This document shows, piece after piece, positions 2,829 through 9,788 of a DNA stretch of 11,318 bases. The notes below the pieces were generated by a model. The model ran no database searches and was not told the origin of the DNA. It saw nothing but the letters and a program-made list of their open reading frames with translations. The position numbers and the translations under genes are program-made. The stretch is from a virus (Duplodnaviria; Heunggongvirae; Uroviricota; Caudoviricetes), in the IMG/VR virus record IMGVR_UViG_2778261301_000003, positions 1-11,318 of that record. One strand, given 5' to 3'. Positions within the stretch are counted from its first letter, which is position 1; each line of letters begins with the position of its first letter.

Positions 2829-2863
2829 ACCGCGTTGTCGGCGGTGCAGATTGATAAAGAGCG
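2829..2863 (-). promoter_or_regulatory. nutR (boxA plus P22-type boxB)
   Basis: On the minus strand, boxA CGCTCTTTAT (2854-2863) is followed 8 nt later by the hairpin ACCGCCGACAACGCGGT (2829-2845) with a GACAA loop, between cro and cII. Confidence 0.6.
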
Positions 2864-2870
2864 GTGTTAC

Positions 2871-3080
<210 letters not shown>

Positions 3081-3097
3081 TTAGTACATGCAATCAT

Positions 3098-3161
3098 TAT
3101 CACCGCCAGAGGTAAAATAGTCAACACGCACGGTGTTAGATATTTATCCCTTGCGGTGATA
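3098..3161. promoter_or_regulatory. OR operator cluster (OR1, OR2, OR3) with divergent pR and pRM
   Basis: TATCACCGCCAGAGGTA (3098-3114), CAACACGCACGGTGTTA (3122-3138) and TATCCCTTGCGGTGATA (3145-3161) match lambda OR1/OR2/OR3. The cI ATG at 3172 sits right at the expected pRM leaderless start. Confidence 0.9.
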
Positions 3162-3168
3162 GATTTAA

Positions 3169-3885
<717 letters not shown>

Positions 3886-3892
3886 CACGTAA

Positions 3893-4330
3893 ATGATTAA
3901 AGAACGTATTTCTTATATCATTCCGATTGCGATGGATGAAGGCAACCCCGTAACTCCAGTTCTTATCTATGAAATGGATAAAGACTCCCATGAAGTGGAT
4001 CTGTCATTTGGCGCTTTTTTTATCGGCCTTAAGGCTACAAAAAAATATTCCATAGGCATTGAGGTTTTCAATGCTCAAGAAATACCGATACCAATTGACA
4101 CAAAACTGTACTCCAACCATAAGTTTTTTACGGTAGCAGAAGCCAACGATGGAGAAACCATCGTATCAACTTCTATGAGAATTAACTTCCCAAGGGTGAA
4201 AATTATCAAGCCTGGGATATTCGAAGTTAGAGCATCACTGGTTAATCCTGAGAAAGGCGAAGTAATTGATGTAAAAAGTTCGTTTTTTGACGTGAAGATA
4301 ACAGGATCAGTTCGCGATGAGTTTAGATAA
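3893..4330 (+). CDS. Hypothetical soluble protein (145 aa) in the rexA-equivalent position
   Basis: ATG 7 nt after the cI stop with no obvious SD, suggesting coupling to cI translation. No TM segment or signal peptide; hydrophobic/polar alternation suggests a beta-rich fold. Not RexA-like by size (145 vs 279 aa); no recognisable catalytic motif. Confidence 0.6.
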   Translation: MIKERISYIIPIAMDEGNPVTPVLIYEMDKDSHEVDLSFGAFFIGLKATKKYSIGIEVFNAQEIPIPIDTKLYSNHKFFTVAEANDGETIVSTSMRINFPRVKIIKPGIFEVRASLVNPEKGEVIDVKSSFFDVKITGSVRDEFR

Positions 4331-4688
4331 CAAGGTTGCTCAGCTTCGTCCAAATCAAAACATATCTCGCCCAATTGGACACTATTCCACTGATGATGCA
4401 TACTCTCGGCATGGTGGAGGAAACGGCGGAGGTAACATGCTTGAGGCTAGAGTTGCAAAGCTAGAGTCTGATGTTGAATACATCAAGCGCGATCTCGCTG
4501 AGGTAAAGTCAGATATAAAATCTGTTGATTCTCGTCTGTCAGGTATTGAGACAAGCATTAGCTCAGCAAAAACCACCATTAAGGCATCTGCGGTCGTTGT
4601 CAGTTTCGTGTTCGCATTTTGCGCCTACATTTTTGGAAGTTATGTATCCAAAATCCTTGATGCCTTAAACGGACTCGTTCTTAAGTAA
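4317..4688 (+). CDS. Hypothetical tail-anchored membrane protein (123 aa): Gly-rich N-terminus, coiled coil, single C-terminal TM helix
   Basis: ATG at 4317 overlaps the upstream stop (4328-4330). An alternative start at ATG 4437 with GGAGG 4 nt upstream would give 83 aa. Heptad-like segment LEARVAKLESDVEYIKRDLAEVKSDIKSVDSRL, then hydrophobic AVVVSFVFAFCAYIFGSYV. Architecture resembles XhlA-like or holin-like small membrane proteins (from memory, unverified). Confidence 0.6.
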   Translation: MSLDNKVAQLRPNQNISRPIGHYSTDDAYSRHGGGNGGGNMLEARVAKLESDVEYIKRDLAEVKSDIKSVDSRLSGIETSISSAKTTIKASAVVVSFVFAFCAYIFGSYVSKILDALNGLVLK

Positions 4689-4694
4689 CACACA

Positions 4695-4721
4695 ACCCGG
4701 CCTCAGTGCCGGGTTTTCTTT
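4695..4721 (+). terminator. Intrinsic terminator closing the cI operon (t-imm equivalent)
   Basis: Stem ACCCGGC/GCCGGGT (4695-4701 and 4708-4714) with loop CTCAGT, followed by TTTTCTTT. Confidence 0.7.
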
Positions 4722-4872
4722 GCCTCTCGATCCCCCCCTCCCAACAACACATAACCATTTGTATTTATTGGAAAACTAATAGATACAACTTGCTAAACAG
4801 TGCAATTCTGATCCCTCACCTACCTAACAATTCACCCCTGCAAAAAATAAATCCATATAAAAAACATACAGA

Positions 4873-4935
4873 TAACCATCTGCGGTGATAAATTATCTCT
4901 AGCGGTGTTGACACAAATACCACTAGCGGTGATAC
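4873..4935 (+). promoter_or_regulatory. OL operator cluster (OL3, OL2, OL1) with pL promoter reading rightward
   Basis: AACCATCTGCGGTGATA (4873-4889), TATCTCTAGCGGTGTTG (4893-4909) and TACCACTAGCGGTGATA (4917-4933) are lambda-type 17-mers. pL -35 TTGACA (4907-4912) and -10 GATACT (4930-4935), followed by the conserved ACATCAGCAGGACGC start region. Confidence 0.9.
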
Positions 4936-4981
4936 TAAACACATCAGCAGGACGCTGGAAGCCAAACGGAACAGATTGGCA

Positions 4982-5016
4982 TGCTCTTTAACTTCGATGG
5001 GGCGCTGACAAAGCGC
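4982..5016 (+). promoter_or_regulatory. nutL (boxA plus P22-type boxB)
   Basis: boxA TGCTCTTTAAC (4982-4992) and boxB hairpin GCGCTGACAAAGCGC (5002-5016) with a GACAA pentaloop, in the pL leader upstream of N. Confidence 0.7.
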
Positions 5017-5135
5017 AAACAGATACCAAACGAGATGGGTTTGGCGGTGATGTGAATTGCAGATGCAACGACAGCAACCAGAAGATCAGCACCTGGCGCA
5101 TCACCACCAAAGCCATTTCACATGAGGAAAACATC

Positions 5136-5444
5136 ATGACGGTAATCGTGTACGGAAAATCAACATTTGCAGGAAATGCCAAAACTCGCCGTCATGAGCG
5201 GCGCAGAAAGCTGGCTATCGAGCGTGATTCCATCTGCAACATCATCGATTCGATCTTCGGCACAGACAGTGAGGAAGATGTTCAGGAAGAACCGAGAAAG
5301 CGTTTAAGTCTTTCTGAAAAAGCAATATCACTCGGCATCATCAGTAAATCAAATACAGATGCGAATGGCGGAAGCGTTTGTTTGCCTGAAGTTGCACTGT
5401 ATGCTGCTGGTTACAGGTCAATGAAATCAATTACGGCGAGATAG
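5136..5444 (+). CDS. N: Antitermination protein N, P22 type (102 aa)
   Basis: N-terminal arginine-rich motif GNAKTRRHERRRKLAIERD matches the P22 N boxB-binding peptide (from memory). Start at ATG 5136 with AGGAA SD; the track's 130-aa ORF from 5052 runs into the nut leader and is rejected. Confidence 0.85.
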   Translation: MTVIVYGKSTFAGNAKTRRHERRRKLAIERDSICNIIDSIFGTDSEEDVQEEPRKRLSLSEKAISLGIISKSNTDANGGSVCLPEVALYAAGYRSMKSITAR

Positions 5445-5446
5445 AA

Positions 5447-5713
5447 ATGACTAGCAAACAAGTATCATATAAATGCTATTGCCCTTTATGTGGAAGAAAA
5501 TTCAGCGCCAAGGCAGCATGGAAGCATATCAATGATTATCATCCAAAAGCATCAGAACGTGAGTTGATGATGATAAGAGATGTAAAACGAGAAAAAATTT
5601 CTTTCGCAACAAAGCCACTAAACGCCAACAAAAACGCAATATTGTATCAAATGCATCGTTCAAGTGGTCCAGATTATTCTGGAGGGCTTCCATCTCTTGG
5701 AAAGAAAAAATAA
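5447..5713 (+). CDS. Small zinc-finger protein (88 aa), C2H2-like
   Basis: Motif C-x2-C-x11-H-x4-H (CPLCGRKFSAKAAWKHINDYH) near the N-terminus; starts 2 nt after the N stop; basic C-terminal tail. Confidence 0.55.
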   Translation: MTSKQVSYKCYCPLCGRKFSAKAAWKHINDYHPKASERELMMIRDVKREKISFATKPLNANKNAILYQMHRSSGPDYSGGLPSLGKKK

Positions 5714-5846: not shown

Positions 5847-6212
5847 ATGGAAGAACAAGCAAACAAGATTCTCGTAGAACTACTGCAAAAAGCCAGTAAT
5901 GGAATAGACGCGGCTGTTTCATTTAGCCAGGCACAGATTCCTGATGTCATCCATCAGCTTTTGATGTGGCACGCCGTATCATCAGCTGGAATTCAGGCTA
6001 TCTGTGTATTGGTGATTATAGCGTGTGTTTATCTGATGATTTTTGCATGGAATAAAGGAGATGATGCAGATATTGTTATTTTATCACTACTTGTCACATC
6101 AGGAATAGCGATTACTTCTATTGTTGTTTTCTTCAATTATTTCGACTGGCTGAAAATTTGGCTTGCTCCAAAACTTTACCTTATCGAATATGCCGCATCA
6201 TTGGTTAAGTAA
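5847..6212 (+). CDS. Small inner-membrane protein (121 aa, two predicted TM helices)
   Basis: GAGGTGAG SD upstream of ATG 5847; hydrophobic segments AVSSAGIQAICVLVIIACVYLMIFAW and IVILSLLVTSGIAITSIVVFFNYF. Confidence 0.6.
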   Translation: MEEQANKILVELLQKASNGIDAAVSFSQAQIPDVIHQLLMWHAVSSAGIQAICVLVIIACVYLMIFAWNKGDDADIVILSLLVTSGIAITSIVVFFNYFDWLKIWLAPKLYLIEYAASLVK

Positions 6213-6265: not shown

Positions 6266-6592
6266 ATGAAAGTTTTAATGGTTTATGAAAATGTTCCAGA
6301 GTCGACTGAAATCTATATTTTTGATGCCAATGAAGATGAAGTTAACGATTTGAAATTGTCTCACGGCAATTACACAAATGCTAATTGTGATGAAAGTATC
6401 GAAAAAGCACTATCACGTGTTCTTGTCAGAATTAGTGATCCAGAACATTGTGATGATGATTGGCTTTCTTATTGTGGAGCGGTAAAAACTGATGCAGGAA
6501 AATGGAGTAAAAGTAAAGTTGATAACTCAACTCCAATCATTATGAAAGATAGTGATATTGAAATGGTAATAATAACCGGAATGATTATGTAG
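6266..6592 (+). CDS. Hypothetical acidic protein (108 aa)
   Basis: ORF with a G-rich SD; about 21 Asp/Glu versus about 10 Lys/Arg by hand count; AT-rich codon usage typical of moron genes. Confidence 0.5.
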   Translation: MKVLMVYENVPESTEIYIFDANEDEVNDLKLSHGNYTNANCDESIEKALSRVLVRISDPEHCDDDWLSYCGAVKTDAGKWSKSKVDNSTPIIMKDSDIEMVIITGMIM

Positions 6593-7084: not shown

Positions 7085-8053
7085 ATGAGTGAAGTAACAG
7101 ACTTAGTTGTTATTGAAAAAGCAAATGCAATGACTGTATTTCAGTCTGCAGACCAGATTGAAGAAATTCTCCAAAAGGTTGAACGTGAAGTTATGTCCTT
7201 TGTGCCTGATATCACAACGGCAAAGGGCAGAAAGGAGATCGCTTCTCTGGCGTATAAAGTTGCGCAGACGAAAACATATCTCGATGGTCTTGGCAAAGAC
7301 CTTGTTGCTGAACTGAAGGAAATTCCAAAGCTAATTGATGCTAACCGCAAGACAGTGCGTGATCGCCTTGATGAGCTGAAAGCCAAGGCGCGCCAGCCTC
7401 TTACTGATTATGAGGAGGAGCAGGCACGGATTAAAGCCGAAGAAGAAGCTAAGGCAGCAGCCGAAGCTCTCGCAAAGCAAATTGAGTCTGACCATGAAAT
7501 AGCGATTTTGATGGATCGCGAATTTGACCGCCAAAGAGAAGAGGCAAGACTCAAAGCGGAGCAGGAAAAGCGAGAGCATGAAGAACGCTTAAAAAGAGAA
7601 GCTGAAGAGAAAGCCAGAGCTGAAGCCGAAGCAAAGGCAAAAGCCGAAATTGAAGCAGCAGCAAGGCGAGAAGCAGAAGCTAAGGCAGCAGCGGAACGTG
7701 CAGAGCGTGAACGTATTGAAGCCGAGCAACGAGCACAGCGCGAAGCAAAAGAGGCAGCAGAACGAGCTGAAAGAGAAAAGCATGCGGCAATTGAAGCAGA
7801 ACGTCGTAAAGCACAGGAGGAGGCTGAACGAATCCGGCGCGAGGCTGAAGCAAAAGAGCAAGCCAGAATAGCAGAAGAAAAAAGAATCAAGGACGAAGAA
7901 GAGCGTAGAGCAAAGGATAAAGCTCACCGGAAAGAAGTAAATAACAAAATACTGGCTGACCTTATCAAGGTTGGCGCATCAGAAGATGTTGCTAAAAATA
8001 TCATAACAGCCATCGTAAAAGGCGAAGTATTCGCAACAAAAATAACCTACTAA
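7085..8053 (+). CDS. Hypothetical protein (322 aa) with a long Ala/Glu/Lys/Arg-rich helical repeat region
   Basis: Strong SD AAGGAGG; N-terminal domain of about 115 aa, a central low-complexity A/E/K/R-rich segment of roughly 170 aa (TolA domain II-like composition), and a C-terminal domain of about 40 aa. Confidence 0.7.
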   Translation: MSEVTDLVVIEKANAMTVFQSADQIEEILQKVEREVMSFVPDITTAKGRKEIASLAYKVAQTKTYLDGLGKDLVAELKEIPKLIDANRKTVRDRLDELKAKARQPLTDYEEEQARIKAEEEAKAAAEALAKQIESDHEIAILMDREFDRQREEARLKAEQEKREHEERLKREAEEKARAEAEAKAKAEIEAAARREAEAKAAAERAERERIEAEQRAQREAKEAAERAEREKHAAIEAERRKAQEEAERIRREAEAKEQARIAEEKRIKDEEERRAKDKAHRKEVNNKILADLIKVGASEDVAKNIITAIVKGEVFATKITY

Positions 8054-8523: not shown

Positions 8524-9204
8524 ATGGGAACTGCGACATTAATACTCGGTGAGTCTGGCACCGGAAAATCAACCAGCATGAGAAATATCAATCCAGAGGA
8601 AGCAATACTTATAAAACCAATAGGCAAGCCGCTTCCATTTAAATCAAAAGACTGGCTGGCATGGGATGCCAGAGCAAAAAAAGGAACCGTAGTTACCACT
8701 GACAAATGGGACGTAATAGTTGCCGTAATTAAGCGTGCTCACGAATACGGGAAAAGAATCGTTATTGTTGATGACTTCCAGTATGTGATGAGCAATGAGT
8801 TTATGCGCCGCTCAGAAGAAAAATCGTTTGATAAATTTACTGAGATAGGCCGCCACGCATGGGAGGTGATTAAGGCTGCACAGGATGCACCTGATGACCT
8901 GAGAGTCTATTTTCTTGCGCACACCGAAGAAACCCCTATGGGGCGCGTGAAAATGAAAACTATCGGCAAAATGCTGGACGAGAAAATCACTGTCGAAGGC
9001 ATGTTTACTATAGTTCTTCGCACTCTTACCCGCGATGACCAGTTCTTTTTCACCACGAAAAACAACGGTGCAGACACTGTTAAATCCCCAATGGGAATGT
9101 TTGATTCCAATGAGATTGATAACGATCTCTCTTTCGTCGATGCCACTGTTTGTGATTACTACGGCATCAATAATGTTCATCAAATTAAGGAAAACGCCGC
9201 ATGA
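8524..9204 (+). CDS. Sak4-like RecA-core ATPase (AAA_24-type), phage recombination protein
   Basis: N-terminal Walker A LILGESGTGKST and Walker B-like IVIVDD, about 226 aa; located where lambda has the Red genes and followed by an SSB-like gene. Confidence 0.6.
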   Translation: MGTATLILGESGTGKSTSMRNINPEEAILIKPIGKPLPFKSKDWLAWDARAKKGTVVTTDKWDVIVAVIKRAHEYGKRIVIVDDFQYVMSNEFMRRSEEKSFDKFTEIGRHAWEVIKAAQDAPDDLRVYFLAHTEETPMGRVKMKTIGKMLDEKITVEGMFTIVLRTLTRDDQFFFTTKNNGADTVKSPMGMFDSNEIDNDLSFVDATVCDYYGINNVHQIKENAA

Positions 9205-9788
9205 GCAACGTGATTTTTACTTATAACGAAGAAGCAGCACTGACCGCAGGGCAAGGTGGTTTTATTAACGAAACTGGCGCTCATATCATTACCATTACTG
9301 AAGCAGAACTAAAGCAATCAGAAAAAGGAGCCAAATTTATTGAGTTTTCTGGCGAATCCGACGACGGACGTAAAATCCAATATCTTAGCGTCTGTGTTCA
9401 GAAAAATGACGGAACGGAAAACAAATTTGGCGCAAATGTCGTTCACGCCATGATGGGGTGTGCCGGGATTGGACAATTAACGCAGCATATGGTTTCCGCC
9501 AGTAAATTTGTTGCTCCTGAGTTTCACGGAAAGAAAATCGGGTTAGTGCTACAGAAAGTATTAACCACAAACAAAAAGACTGGTGCAGACAGTTACCAGA
9601 TGGAAATACGCATCCCGTTTATTGCACAAACAGGCCAAACACTTAAAGAAAAGGCGGAAGGCAAGCAACCAGAAACTATCGCCAACATGGTTTCCAGCCT
9701 CAAAGATAAAGACAATCGCTCTAAAAACGTAAGCCAGAATCATGCAGATGATTATGGTTACAGCCAGAACGATTACCCTCCTTTCTGA
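9201..9788 (+). CDS. Putative ssDNA-binding protein partner of Sak4 (195 aa)
   Basis: ATGA overlap with the upstream gene; acidic C-terminal tail ending ...DDYGYSQNDYPPF, reminiscent of the acidic tails with terminal Phe in SSB and T7 gp2.5. The OB fold is not verifiable by eye. Confidence 0.4.
   Translation: MSNVIFTYNEEAALTAGQGGFINETGAHIITITEAELKQSEKGAKFIEFSGESDDGRKIQYLSVCVQKNDGTENKFGANVVHAMMGCAGIGQLTQHMVSASKFVAPEFHGKKIGLVLQKVLTTNKKTGADSYQMEIRIPFIAQTGQTLKEKAEGKQPETIANMVSSLKDKDNRSKNVSQNHADDYGYSQNDYPPF

Follow-up and report, generated by a model that had tools for sequence, protein, structure and literature searches.

A soluble protein with a predicted beta-sandwich fold and its putative coiled-coil membrane partner in the rexAB position of a lambda-like immunity region

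The stretch of DNA analysed here, hereafter the window (11,318 nucleotides of the tailed-phage record IMGVR_UViG_2778261301_000003), contains a lambda-type immunity region in which, judging from the alignment with lambda, two small genes exactly replace rexA-rexB between the cI stop codon and the shared tIMM terminator. The first, ORF145, encodes a soluble protein for which an all-beta structure is predicted, and the second, ORF123, a predicted membrane-anchored partner. On their sequence features the two are good candidate components of a new anti-phage system encoded in prophages. The reading developed below, to which we give somewhat less than an even chance, is that ORF145 is the cytoplasmic subunit that confers specificity on, or gates, a RexAB-like two-gene exclusion cassette expressed in lysogens, in which the membrane protein would be the gated effector.

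The cI gene (3172-3885, plus strand) codes for a 237-residue repressor of the lambda immunity type, with the Pfam domains HTH_3 (E 4e-11) and Peptidase_S24 (E 5.7e-28); 224 of its 237 residues are identical to those of lambda CI, and Cro is identical to its lambda counterpart at 65 of 66 residues. The segment comprising cro, OR and cI (window 2857-3881) is 92.9% identical to lambda 38255-37231, and it includes the lambda-type OR operators with the divergent promoters pR and pRM (3072-3171), a pR-like site being recognised at 3124-3096 on the minus strand. The homology with lambda ends at the last cI codon and restarts at a terminator stem, from which window 4694-4955 matches lambda 35826-35570, the region from the terminator after rexB through OL/pL, with 89.3% identity. 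This Rho-independent terminator (4694-4725, plus strand), for which the scan gave a stem at 4694-4715 followed by TTCTTTGCCT, is the homologue of lambda tIMM, where the cI-rexA-rexB transcript terminates. The OL operators and pL (4880-4940, plus strand; TTGACA-17-GATACT at 4908-4936) mark the far boundary of the slot. Within it, 812 bp carrying ORF145 and ORF123 stand in place of the 1404 bp that carry rexA-rexB in lambda.

The terminator scan of the window placed a strong site right after ORF123 and none resembling a terminator in the interval from cI to ORF145. Together with the lambda-like cro-OR-pRM-cI arrangement and the position equivalent to that of rexAB, this strongly implies, by analogy with lambda, that ORF145 and ORF123 are expressed in lysogens from pRM, the presumed promoter of a cI-ORF145-ORF123 transcript. 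The content of the rex slot is polymorphic among lambda-like immunity regions: in 5426 complete E. coli genomes, the counts were 618 for lambda-like cI, 99 for rexAB and 16 for the ORF145-ORF123 pair. In phage APC_JM3.2 the slot is empty, showing that the cassette is optional.

ORF145 (3893-4330, plus strand) encodes a protein of 145 aa with a mass of 16.4 kDa and a pI of 5.4. The cI stop codon TAA occupies 3883-3885, and the spacer CACGTAA (3886-3892, plus strand) separates it by 7 nt from the ORF145 ATG at 3893. The TAA at 3890-3892 lies in the ORF145 frame and abuts the ATG, so that no earlier start is possible and the start codon is unambiguous; in agreement with this, the N-terminus MIKERISY is kept by all ORF145 homologues. 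Full-length homologues form 20 clusters in a search of 5.8 billion proteins, and comparison with four of the homologues gave dN/dS values of 0.10-0.17, indicative of purifying selection; both results identify ORF145 as a real gene. An antisense ORF at 4075-4401 (108 aa) is regarded as spurious, since these sense-frame values rule against it. The maximum Kyte-Doolittle mean over 19 residues is 0.81, as against 2.1 for ORF123, and the lack of any hydrophobic segment indicates a soluble protein, as the preliminary description had supposed.

The same description had noted that ORF145 starts 7 nt after the cI stop codon without a Shine-Dalgarno sequence, and had taken this as a sign of translation coupled to cI. 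The first point is borne out by the pairing energy. The 22 nt preceding ORF145 pair with the anti-Shine-Dalgarno sequence at -3.1 kcal/mol, a background level given that 40% of the window positions score -3.0 kcal/mol or lower; within the pair the energies are -3.1 and -4.1 kcal/mol, and for comparison those of cro, O and N are -12.7, -6.9 and -6.3 kcal/mol. The spacer is therefore a candidate termination-reinitiation junction, and coupling to cI is plausible at this locus, but it is not general in the family, in which the spacers after other repressors measure 29-245 nt and some homologues have an SD-like sequence of their own. The last ~30 nt of an S24 repressor gene, ending in ..QWPEETFG*, accompany the cassette even where it follows an unrelated repressor. 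This remnant indicates that the ancestral gene started a few nucleotides after the repressor stop codon, and that the cassette moves by recombination within the conserved 3' end of the repressor gene.

The AlphaFold2 model of ORF145 (pLDDT 87.7, pTM 0.82) consists of eight strands without any helix, which agrees with the all-beta fold guessed earlier from the alternation of hydrophobic and polar stretches. The strands are arranged in two sheets, and their number falls in the range of seven to nine that, with Ig-like structural similarity, characterises the Ig-like/E-set beta sandwich to which the protein is predicted to belong. Sequence and profile searches of Pfam, NCBIfam, PADLOC and PDB returned zero matches for ORF145. 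The preliminary description was thus correct that no nuclease, ATPase or HTH signature is present; its statement that the protein has no recognisable domain stands for matches in these databases but not for the fold, nor for family membership, as ORF145 belongs to PHROG 5893 (E 3.4e-64), a phage protein family annotated as of unknown function, with residues 1-140 covering profile positions 1-140 of 140. The ORF145 profile also matches large proteins of 3360, 3267 and 743 aa, with several stretches in each, which resemble Ig-repeat proteins. A catalytic signature is absent from the predicted sandwich, and the fold itself offers no clue to a ligand. A virion or structural role was considered and rejected: Foldseek matches to tail and neck proteins reached only E ~1e-3 with TM <0.45, amounting to generic Ig-like similarity.

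The ORF145 stop codon and the ORF123 start codon lie in a 14-nt overlap of the two genes, ATGAGTTTAGATAA (4317-4330, plus strand), which implies that translation of the pair is coupled. ORF123 (4317-4688, plus strand; 123 aa, pI 8.7; PHROG 6136, E 2.9e-46) is composed of four segments. Residues 1-32 (4317-4412, plus strand) form a variable N-tail (..QLRPNQNISR..DAYSRH) predicted to be disordered (pLDDT ~50), and this tail is the proposed docking site of ORF145. Residues 33-39 (4413-4433, plus strand) are a GGGNGGG linker, near-invariant across the superfamily. They are followed by a heptad coiled coil (residues 40-90; 4434-4586, plus strand), in which 93% of the a and d positions are hydrophobic in one register and the helix is modelled with pLDDT 81-92, and by a C-terminal section (residues 91-123; 4587-4685, plus strand) in which hydropathy indicates a transmembrane helix (~92-110) and a 13-residue tail. 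AlphaFold2 predicted disorder for residues 1-39 and a single continuous helix for residues 40-122, and the Kyte-Doolittle maximum of 2.1 is located near residues 88-110. The gene downstream of ORF145 thus encodes, as previously proposed, a membrane protein, and the combination of a disordered N-terminus, heptads and a C-terminal membrane helix indicates a tail-anchored coiled-coil protein with its N-terminus in the cytoplasm.

In RefSeq the two proteins are labelled 'hypothetical protein' and, for ORF123, 'hemolysin XhlA'. This name, along with weak matches to the Pfam XhlA family (PF10779) and to PHROG 1193 'hemolysin' (E 4e-4), raises the question of whether the pair consists of a genuine holin accessory of the XhlA type, ORF123, and its regulator, ORF145, the two setting the timing of lysis in the lytic cycle. 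Such a role is very improbable. The PF10779 match scored 21.6 bits (E 2.4e-4), below the gathering threshold of 34.7 bits, and falls mainly on the coiled coil (residues 42-95); the profile matches of ORF123 in PDB are generic parallel coiled coils only (for example Lpp, Hv1, sigma-1 and P22 gp26). Both genes are located before the tIMM terminator within the immunity region, on the same strand as cI, while the lambdoid lysis cassette belongs to the late operon, outside this window. No holin (XhlB) or endolysin gene adjoins the pair in any locus, the neighbours being the repressor, ORF145, the terminator and pL/N. With the XhlA likeness below threshold and mainly in the coiled coil, ORF123 may be an anchor alone rather than a pore-forming protein. 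If the pair excludes phages, this would be evidence that the 'hemolysin' label, which may be taken for that of a virulence factor, is probably misleading.

The distribution of the cassette was surveyed in 53 IMG/VR loci, in E. coli and phage records and in ten partner-anchored loci from Klebsiella, Enterobacter, Citrobacter and Salmonella, ~70 loci in total. All of them have the same gene order, with a cro-like gene on the minus strand and, on the plus strand, a repressor, a protein of 131-151 aa and a partner of 101-139 aa. The two cassette genes overlap or abut in every related locus (-23 to +6 nt, in some by the same -14 nt as here). Six upstream proteins from divergent loci were sampled, of which five match PHROG 5893 (E 8.5e-47 to 2.3e-7); the sixth, a 144-aa protein from locus L065, matches no PHROG. 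Apart from the latter, the upstream proteins of the divergent loci belong to PHROG 5893 or to its relative PHROG 5881. Close relatives of ORF145 are rare: a profile search of 1.8 billion proteins yielded about a dozen representatives of 131-149 aa, and a search of species-representative genomes with the ORF145 alignment yielded one locus only, in Dryocola. Megablast with the pair as query gave no match in the phage collection; the homologues in Salmonella phages epsilon34, g341c and NM-3 were found by tblastn. The partner superfamily comprises at least 660 clusters (E <=1e-3), and its sampled members are all located after prophage repressors, in Enterobacterales. A search for proteins in which ORF145 is fused to its partner, prompted by the 276-position profile of PHROG 3556, found none: the best 120 of the 660 partner relatives are 100-159 aa long and the matches of the ORF145 profile 131-149 aa.

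More than 12 types of repressor precede the cassette, and its position after the prophage repressor is constant. The presence of the pair in the repressor transcription unit at every locus would be in keeping with genes without a defence function, modulating the lysis-lysogeny switch or the induction of their own prophage, or altering host envelope physiology by lysogenic conversion; RexA/RexB have also been reported to affect the switch or induction of their own prophage. Translation of ORF145 coupled to cI would link the level of ORF145 to repressor synthesis, and no known defence model matches the pair. This explanation is nevertheless improbable. A cassette that moves among more than 12 unrelated repressors and is missing from close relatives is hard to reconcile with a contact specific to one switch, and both halves diversify by modules in a way typical of arms-race genes.

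Partners related to ORF123 differ in length (123 and 107 aa in E. coli; 103, 112 and 132 aa in Salmonella), the part from the N-terminus to the linker measuring 25-35 residues. Among 13 representative pairs, the identity of the ORF145-type proteins correlates with that of the partner N-tails (Spearman 0.93 over 78 pairwise values, which are not independent) and is uncorrelated with that of the partner C-terminal modules (0.03). At least five unrelated versions of the coiled-coil/transmembrane module exist, and different ones follow even identical ORF145 proteins; the XhlA-like module of ORF123, conversely, also accompanies ORF145-type proteins that share only 25% identity or cannot be aligned pairwise. 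In two E. coli variants, H15 and H16, the match to the query extends no further than base 541, equal to window position 4433, where the G39 codon ends. This places the recombination joint between tail and membrane module at the end of the Gly linker. From these comparisons, namely the contrast between the two correlations and the joint at 4433, ORF145 and the N-tail of the partner make up one evolutionary module and the coiled-coil/transmembrane part a second, freely exchanged one.

The co-variation of ORF145 with the tail is suggestive of a physical interaction between them, but linkage of adjacent DNA could by itself produce a coefficient of this size. If linkage were the whole explanation, ORF145 might act alone and the adjacency of ORF123 reflect shared inheritance only. 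This is highly unlikely: none of the ~70 loci has an ORF145-type gene without a partner, the start/stop overlap is retained at 25-35% identity, and recombination has its joint within ORF123 instead of at the boundary of the two genes. The constant pairing, and a divergence of ORF145 that follows the tail but not the membrane module, lend indirect support to the earlier suggestion that ORF145 may serve as a sensor or adaptor for ORF123.

The closest counterpart in position is the RexA/RexB pair of lambda, which excludes T4 rII and other phages, as has been proposed by depolarising the membrane, and has the same slot and regulatory context, from the cI stop codon to tIMM. In both cases the first gene is that of a soluble protein and the second that of an inner-membrane protein, and both pairs are optional morons presumably expressed from pRM. 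No match to a Rex family was found for ORF145 or ORF123 in Pfam, NCBIfam or PADLOC, and the proteins differ in build. RexA has 279 aa and is not known to be a beta sandwich, and RexB is polytopic with four transmembrane segments, whereas ORF123 has a single C-terminal transmembrane helix on a coiled coil. The RexAB segment is also the longer of the two, at 1404 bp against 812 bp.

True homologues are present in Salmonella phages epsilon34 (gp45/gp44), g341c (gp40/gp39) and NM-3, with gp45 being 73% identical to ORF145 over its full length. The epsilon34 pair shares with ORF145/ORF123 the 14-nt overlap, the position after the repressor, and the N-tail and Gly linker of the partner. It differs in the repressor, in an unrelated coiled-coil/transmembrane module of the partner (PHROG 6324 instead of 6136), and in a spacer of 32 nt instead of 7 nt. 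The authors of the epsilon34 genome paper (2008) placed genes 44 and 45, for which they had no database matches, after the repressor 'like rexA and rexB' (PMC2629481).

Other systems resemble the pair in layout. An acidic protein (ORF145, pI 5.4) encoded before, and overlapping with, a basic one (ORF123, pI 8.7) is an arrangement like that of type II toxin-antitoxin or antiholin-holin pairs. Holin T of T4 with RIII is the precedent for a holin controlled by a cytoplasmic antiholin. This system and the XhlA-type holin partners (XhlA of the B. subtilis PBSX element, SPP1 gp24.1) are analogous in architecture, with a small single-TM membrane protein whose cytoplasmic N-tail a small soluble protein could bind. 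ORF145/ORF123 differ in lying in the immunity region and not in a lysis cassette. The gp30/gp31 pair of mycobacteriophage Sbash, composed of a cytoplasmic and a membrane protein, is reportedly expressed from the prophage and active against heterotypic phages. The mycobacteriophage Butters gp30/gp31 pair is described as prophage-expressed and as defending against heterotypic phages (PMC7542560). The Sbash and Butters pairs, like the proposed cassette, combine a cytoplasmic with a membrane protein in prophage expression; their hosts and sequences are unrelated to those of ORF145/ORF123 and their membrane partners are polytopic. BstA of the Salmonella prophage BTP1 occupies the slot between cI and N, is highly expressed in lysogens and confers abortive-infection defence (PMC8585504). 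It differs from ORF145/ORF123 in being a single DNA-associated protein with the self-immunity element aba, and has neither homology to the pair nor a membrane partner. In PADLOC-DB v2.0.0 (2023, so that later systems fall outside it) ORF145 had no match, and ORF123 only matches at the coiled-coil level (E >=0.0046).

Three features favour a gated effector: the gene of an acidic soluble protein comes first and overlaps that of a basic membrane protein; the characterised occupants of the slot, RexAB and BstA, are abortive-infection systems (PMC8585504); and both halves of the cassette diversify in a modular fashion. In the mechanism proposed, ORF145 and ORF123 would be synthesised constitutively at a low level in lysogens from pRM, with translation of ORF145 depending on reinitiation after cI and that of ORF123 on coupling to ORF145. 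The cytoplasmic N-tail of ORF123 would be bound by ORF145, and ORF123 itself would be oligomerised by its coiled coil and fixed in the inner membrane by its transmembrane helix. In the resting lysogen ORF145 would keep a holin-like ORF123 inactive, in the manner of an antiholin or of an antitoxin encoded first. Once the variable beta sandwich senses a cue given by a superinfecting phage, ORF123 would be released or reorganised, and would then permeabilise or depolarise the membrane and abort the infection, comparable to what has been proposed for RexA/RexB.

Several of the same observations would also fit a membrane-tethered blocker that brings about superinfection exclusion without cell death. 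ORF123 would then be a stalk or anchor holding multiple ORF145 copies beneath the inner membrane, where ORF145 would bind and sequester either a component of the phage, incoming or early, or an inner-membrane host factor on which DNA entry depends. ORF123 is nearly devoid of a periplasmic part, its XhlA match is below threshold and its PDB profile matches are confined to generic coiled coils; the free exchange of the coiled-coil/transmembrane module suits a generic anchor, and the Ig-like fold of ORF145 is of a binding type and lacks catalytic residues. We regard this alternative as unlikely, although less so than a role in the switch or in conversion. ORF145 and the N-tail are predicted to be cytoplasmic, whereas most known injection blocks act on the other side of the membrane; a mere anchor gives no obvious selective reason for frequent swapping; and the antitoxin-first gene order is better suited to a gated effector.

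Extended to the whole family, the gated-effector reading would describe a large unnamed group of plug-and-play abortive-infection cassettes, in which a variable Ig-like sensor docks on a matching tail and single-helix effectors are swapped at GGGNGGG. This generalisation is doubtful, and is offered with less assurance than the role of ORF145 in the cassette of the window.

A two-gene accessory cassette of a soluble and a membrane protein in the repressor operon is a well-known arrangement, unlike the proteins and the modular architecture seen here. Searches of the literature on XhlA and prophage defence, on lambdoid hotspots, in the DefensePredictor supplements and with the accessions WP_000588959, WP_000050904 and YP_002533504/5 found no paper naming or testing the pair, although Degnan et al. 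2007 or Brenes & Laub 2025 may describe it.

RexAB is among the oldest known abortive-infection systems, and its mechanism is still poorly understood; the window presents a natural alternative in the same slot, where the replacement is built of two much smaller unrelated proteins, a putative sensor with its matching tail and an exchangeable membrane module. If the cassette does exclude phages, it would provide a minimal tractable model (16 kDa and 13 kDa) of a cytoplasmic sensor gating a membrane effector, and a functional annotation for hundreds of 'hypothetical protein'/'hemolysin XhlA' pairs in prophages of Escherichia, Salmonella, Klebsiella, Enterobacter and Citrobacter. If the plug-and-play reading of the family is also true, these cassettes would be among the commonest occupants of the rex slot in lambdoid prophages, and mechanistically distinct from RexAB.

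The lambda homology of the window stops at 4955, immediately past OL/pL, while the elements that follow look P22-type, and there thus appears to be a mosaic joint between the operators and nutL. These elements are a boxB-like hairpin at about 5003-5017 (GCGCTGACAAAGCGC), which is similar to the P22 nutL boxB, and N (5136-5444), a protein with a Pfam N_peptide match (7e-36) and the arginine-rich motif GNAKTRRHERRRKLAIERD that looks to be of the P22 rather than the lambda type. Lambda immunity would here be joined to what looks like P22-type antitermination.

Three ORFs of the pL operon have no Pfam matches. They encode an 88-aa protein with a zinc-finger-like motif, CxxC...HxxxxH (5447-5713), a 121-aa hydrophobic protein that is probably a membrane protein (5847-6212), and an acidic 108-aa protein (6266-6592). 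In other lambdoid phages sieB occupies roughly the same location as the gene for the 121-aa protein. Further downstream, a 322-aa protein (7085-8053) consists mostly of E/A/K/R-rich repeats (EAEAKAKAE...) and falls in no Pfam family; in the related phage APC_JM3.2 it carries the annotation 'TolA' or 'cell envelope biogenesis protein'. Next come an AAA_24 ATPase (8524-9204) and a protein annotated as DUF669 in APC_JM3.2 (9201-9788).

Two weak sigma-70-like matches, each 9/12 and on the plus strand, lie in or near the ORF145-ORF123 cassette, one inside the 3' end of cI (3739-3768) and the other inside ORF123 (4376-4404). Both are probably due to chance, since the total of six promoter-like sites shows no excess over shuffled controls (4.4 +/- 1.9). 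The first could in principle allow cI-independent transcription of the pair, for which lambda pLIT, which transcribes rexB, would offer a parallel.

The 3' end of an S24 repressor gene, about 30 nt encoding ..QWPEETFG and the stop codon, is kept as a non-coding remnant ahead of the cassette behind unrelated repressors, and looks like a recombination footprint of cassette movement. The segment is found at 3855-3892 in the window and upstream of the ORF145-type gene in the related loci L026, L036, L039, L042, L061 and L004; the epsilon34 lineage has two copies of TTTGGGTGAT, a duplication of this motif. A recombination break also falls at the GGGNGGG linker of ORF123 (residues 33-39, window 4413-4433), which is near-invariant across hundreds of partners that have otherwise diverged. 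The linker may have been retained because it serves as a flexible hinge, because it is a site of crossover at the DNA level, or for some other function.

In Dryocola sp. BD626 (L009) the repressor and the ORF145-type gene are separated by an additional 131-aa ORF with a hydrophobic N-terminus (3576-3971), which may represent another moron stacked in the slot of this cassette. Among 5426 complete E. coli genomes, rexAB occurs in 99, and many of these may be laboratory lambda lysogens, because every copy is at least 99% identical. A lambda-like cI is present in 618 of the genomes; therefore, in most lambda-immunity-like prophages the slot lacks rexAB and either has other content or is empty.
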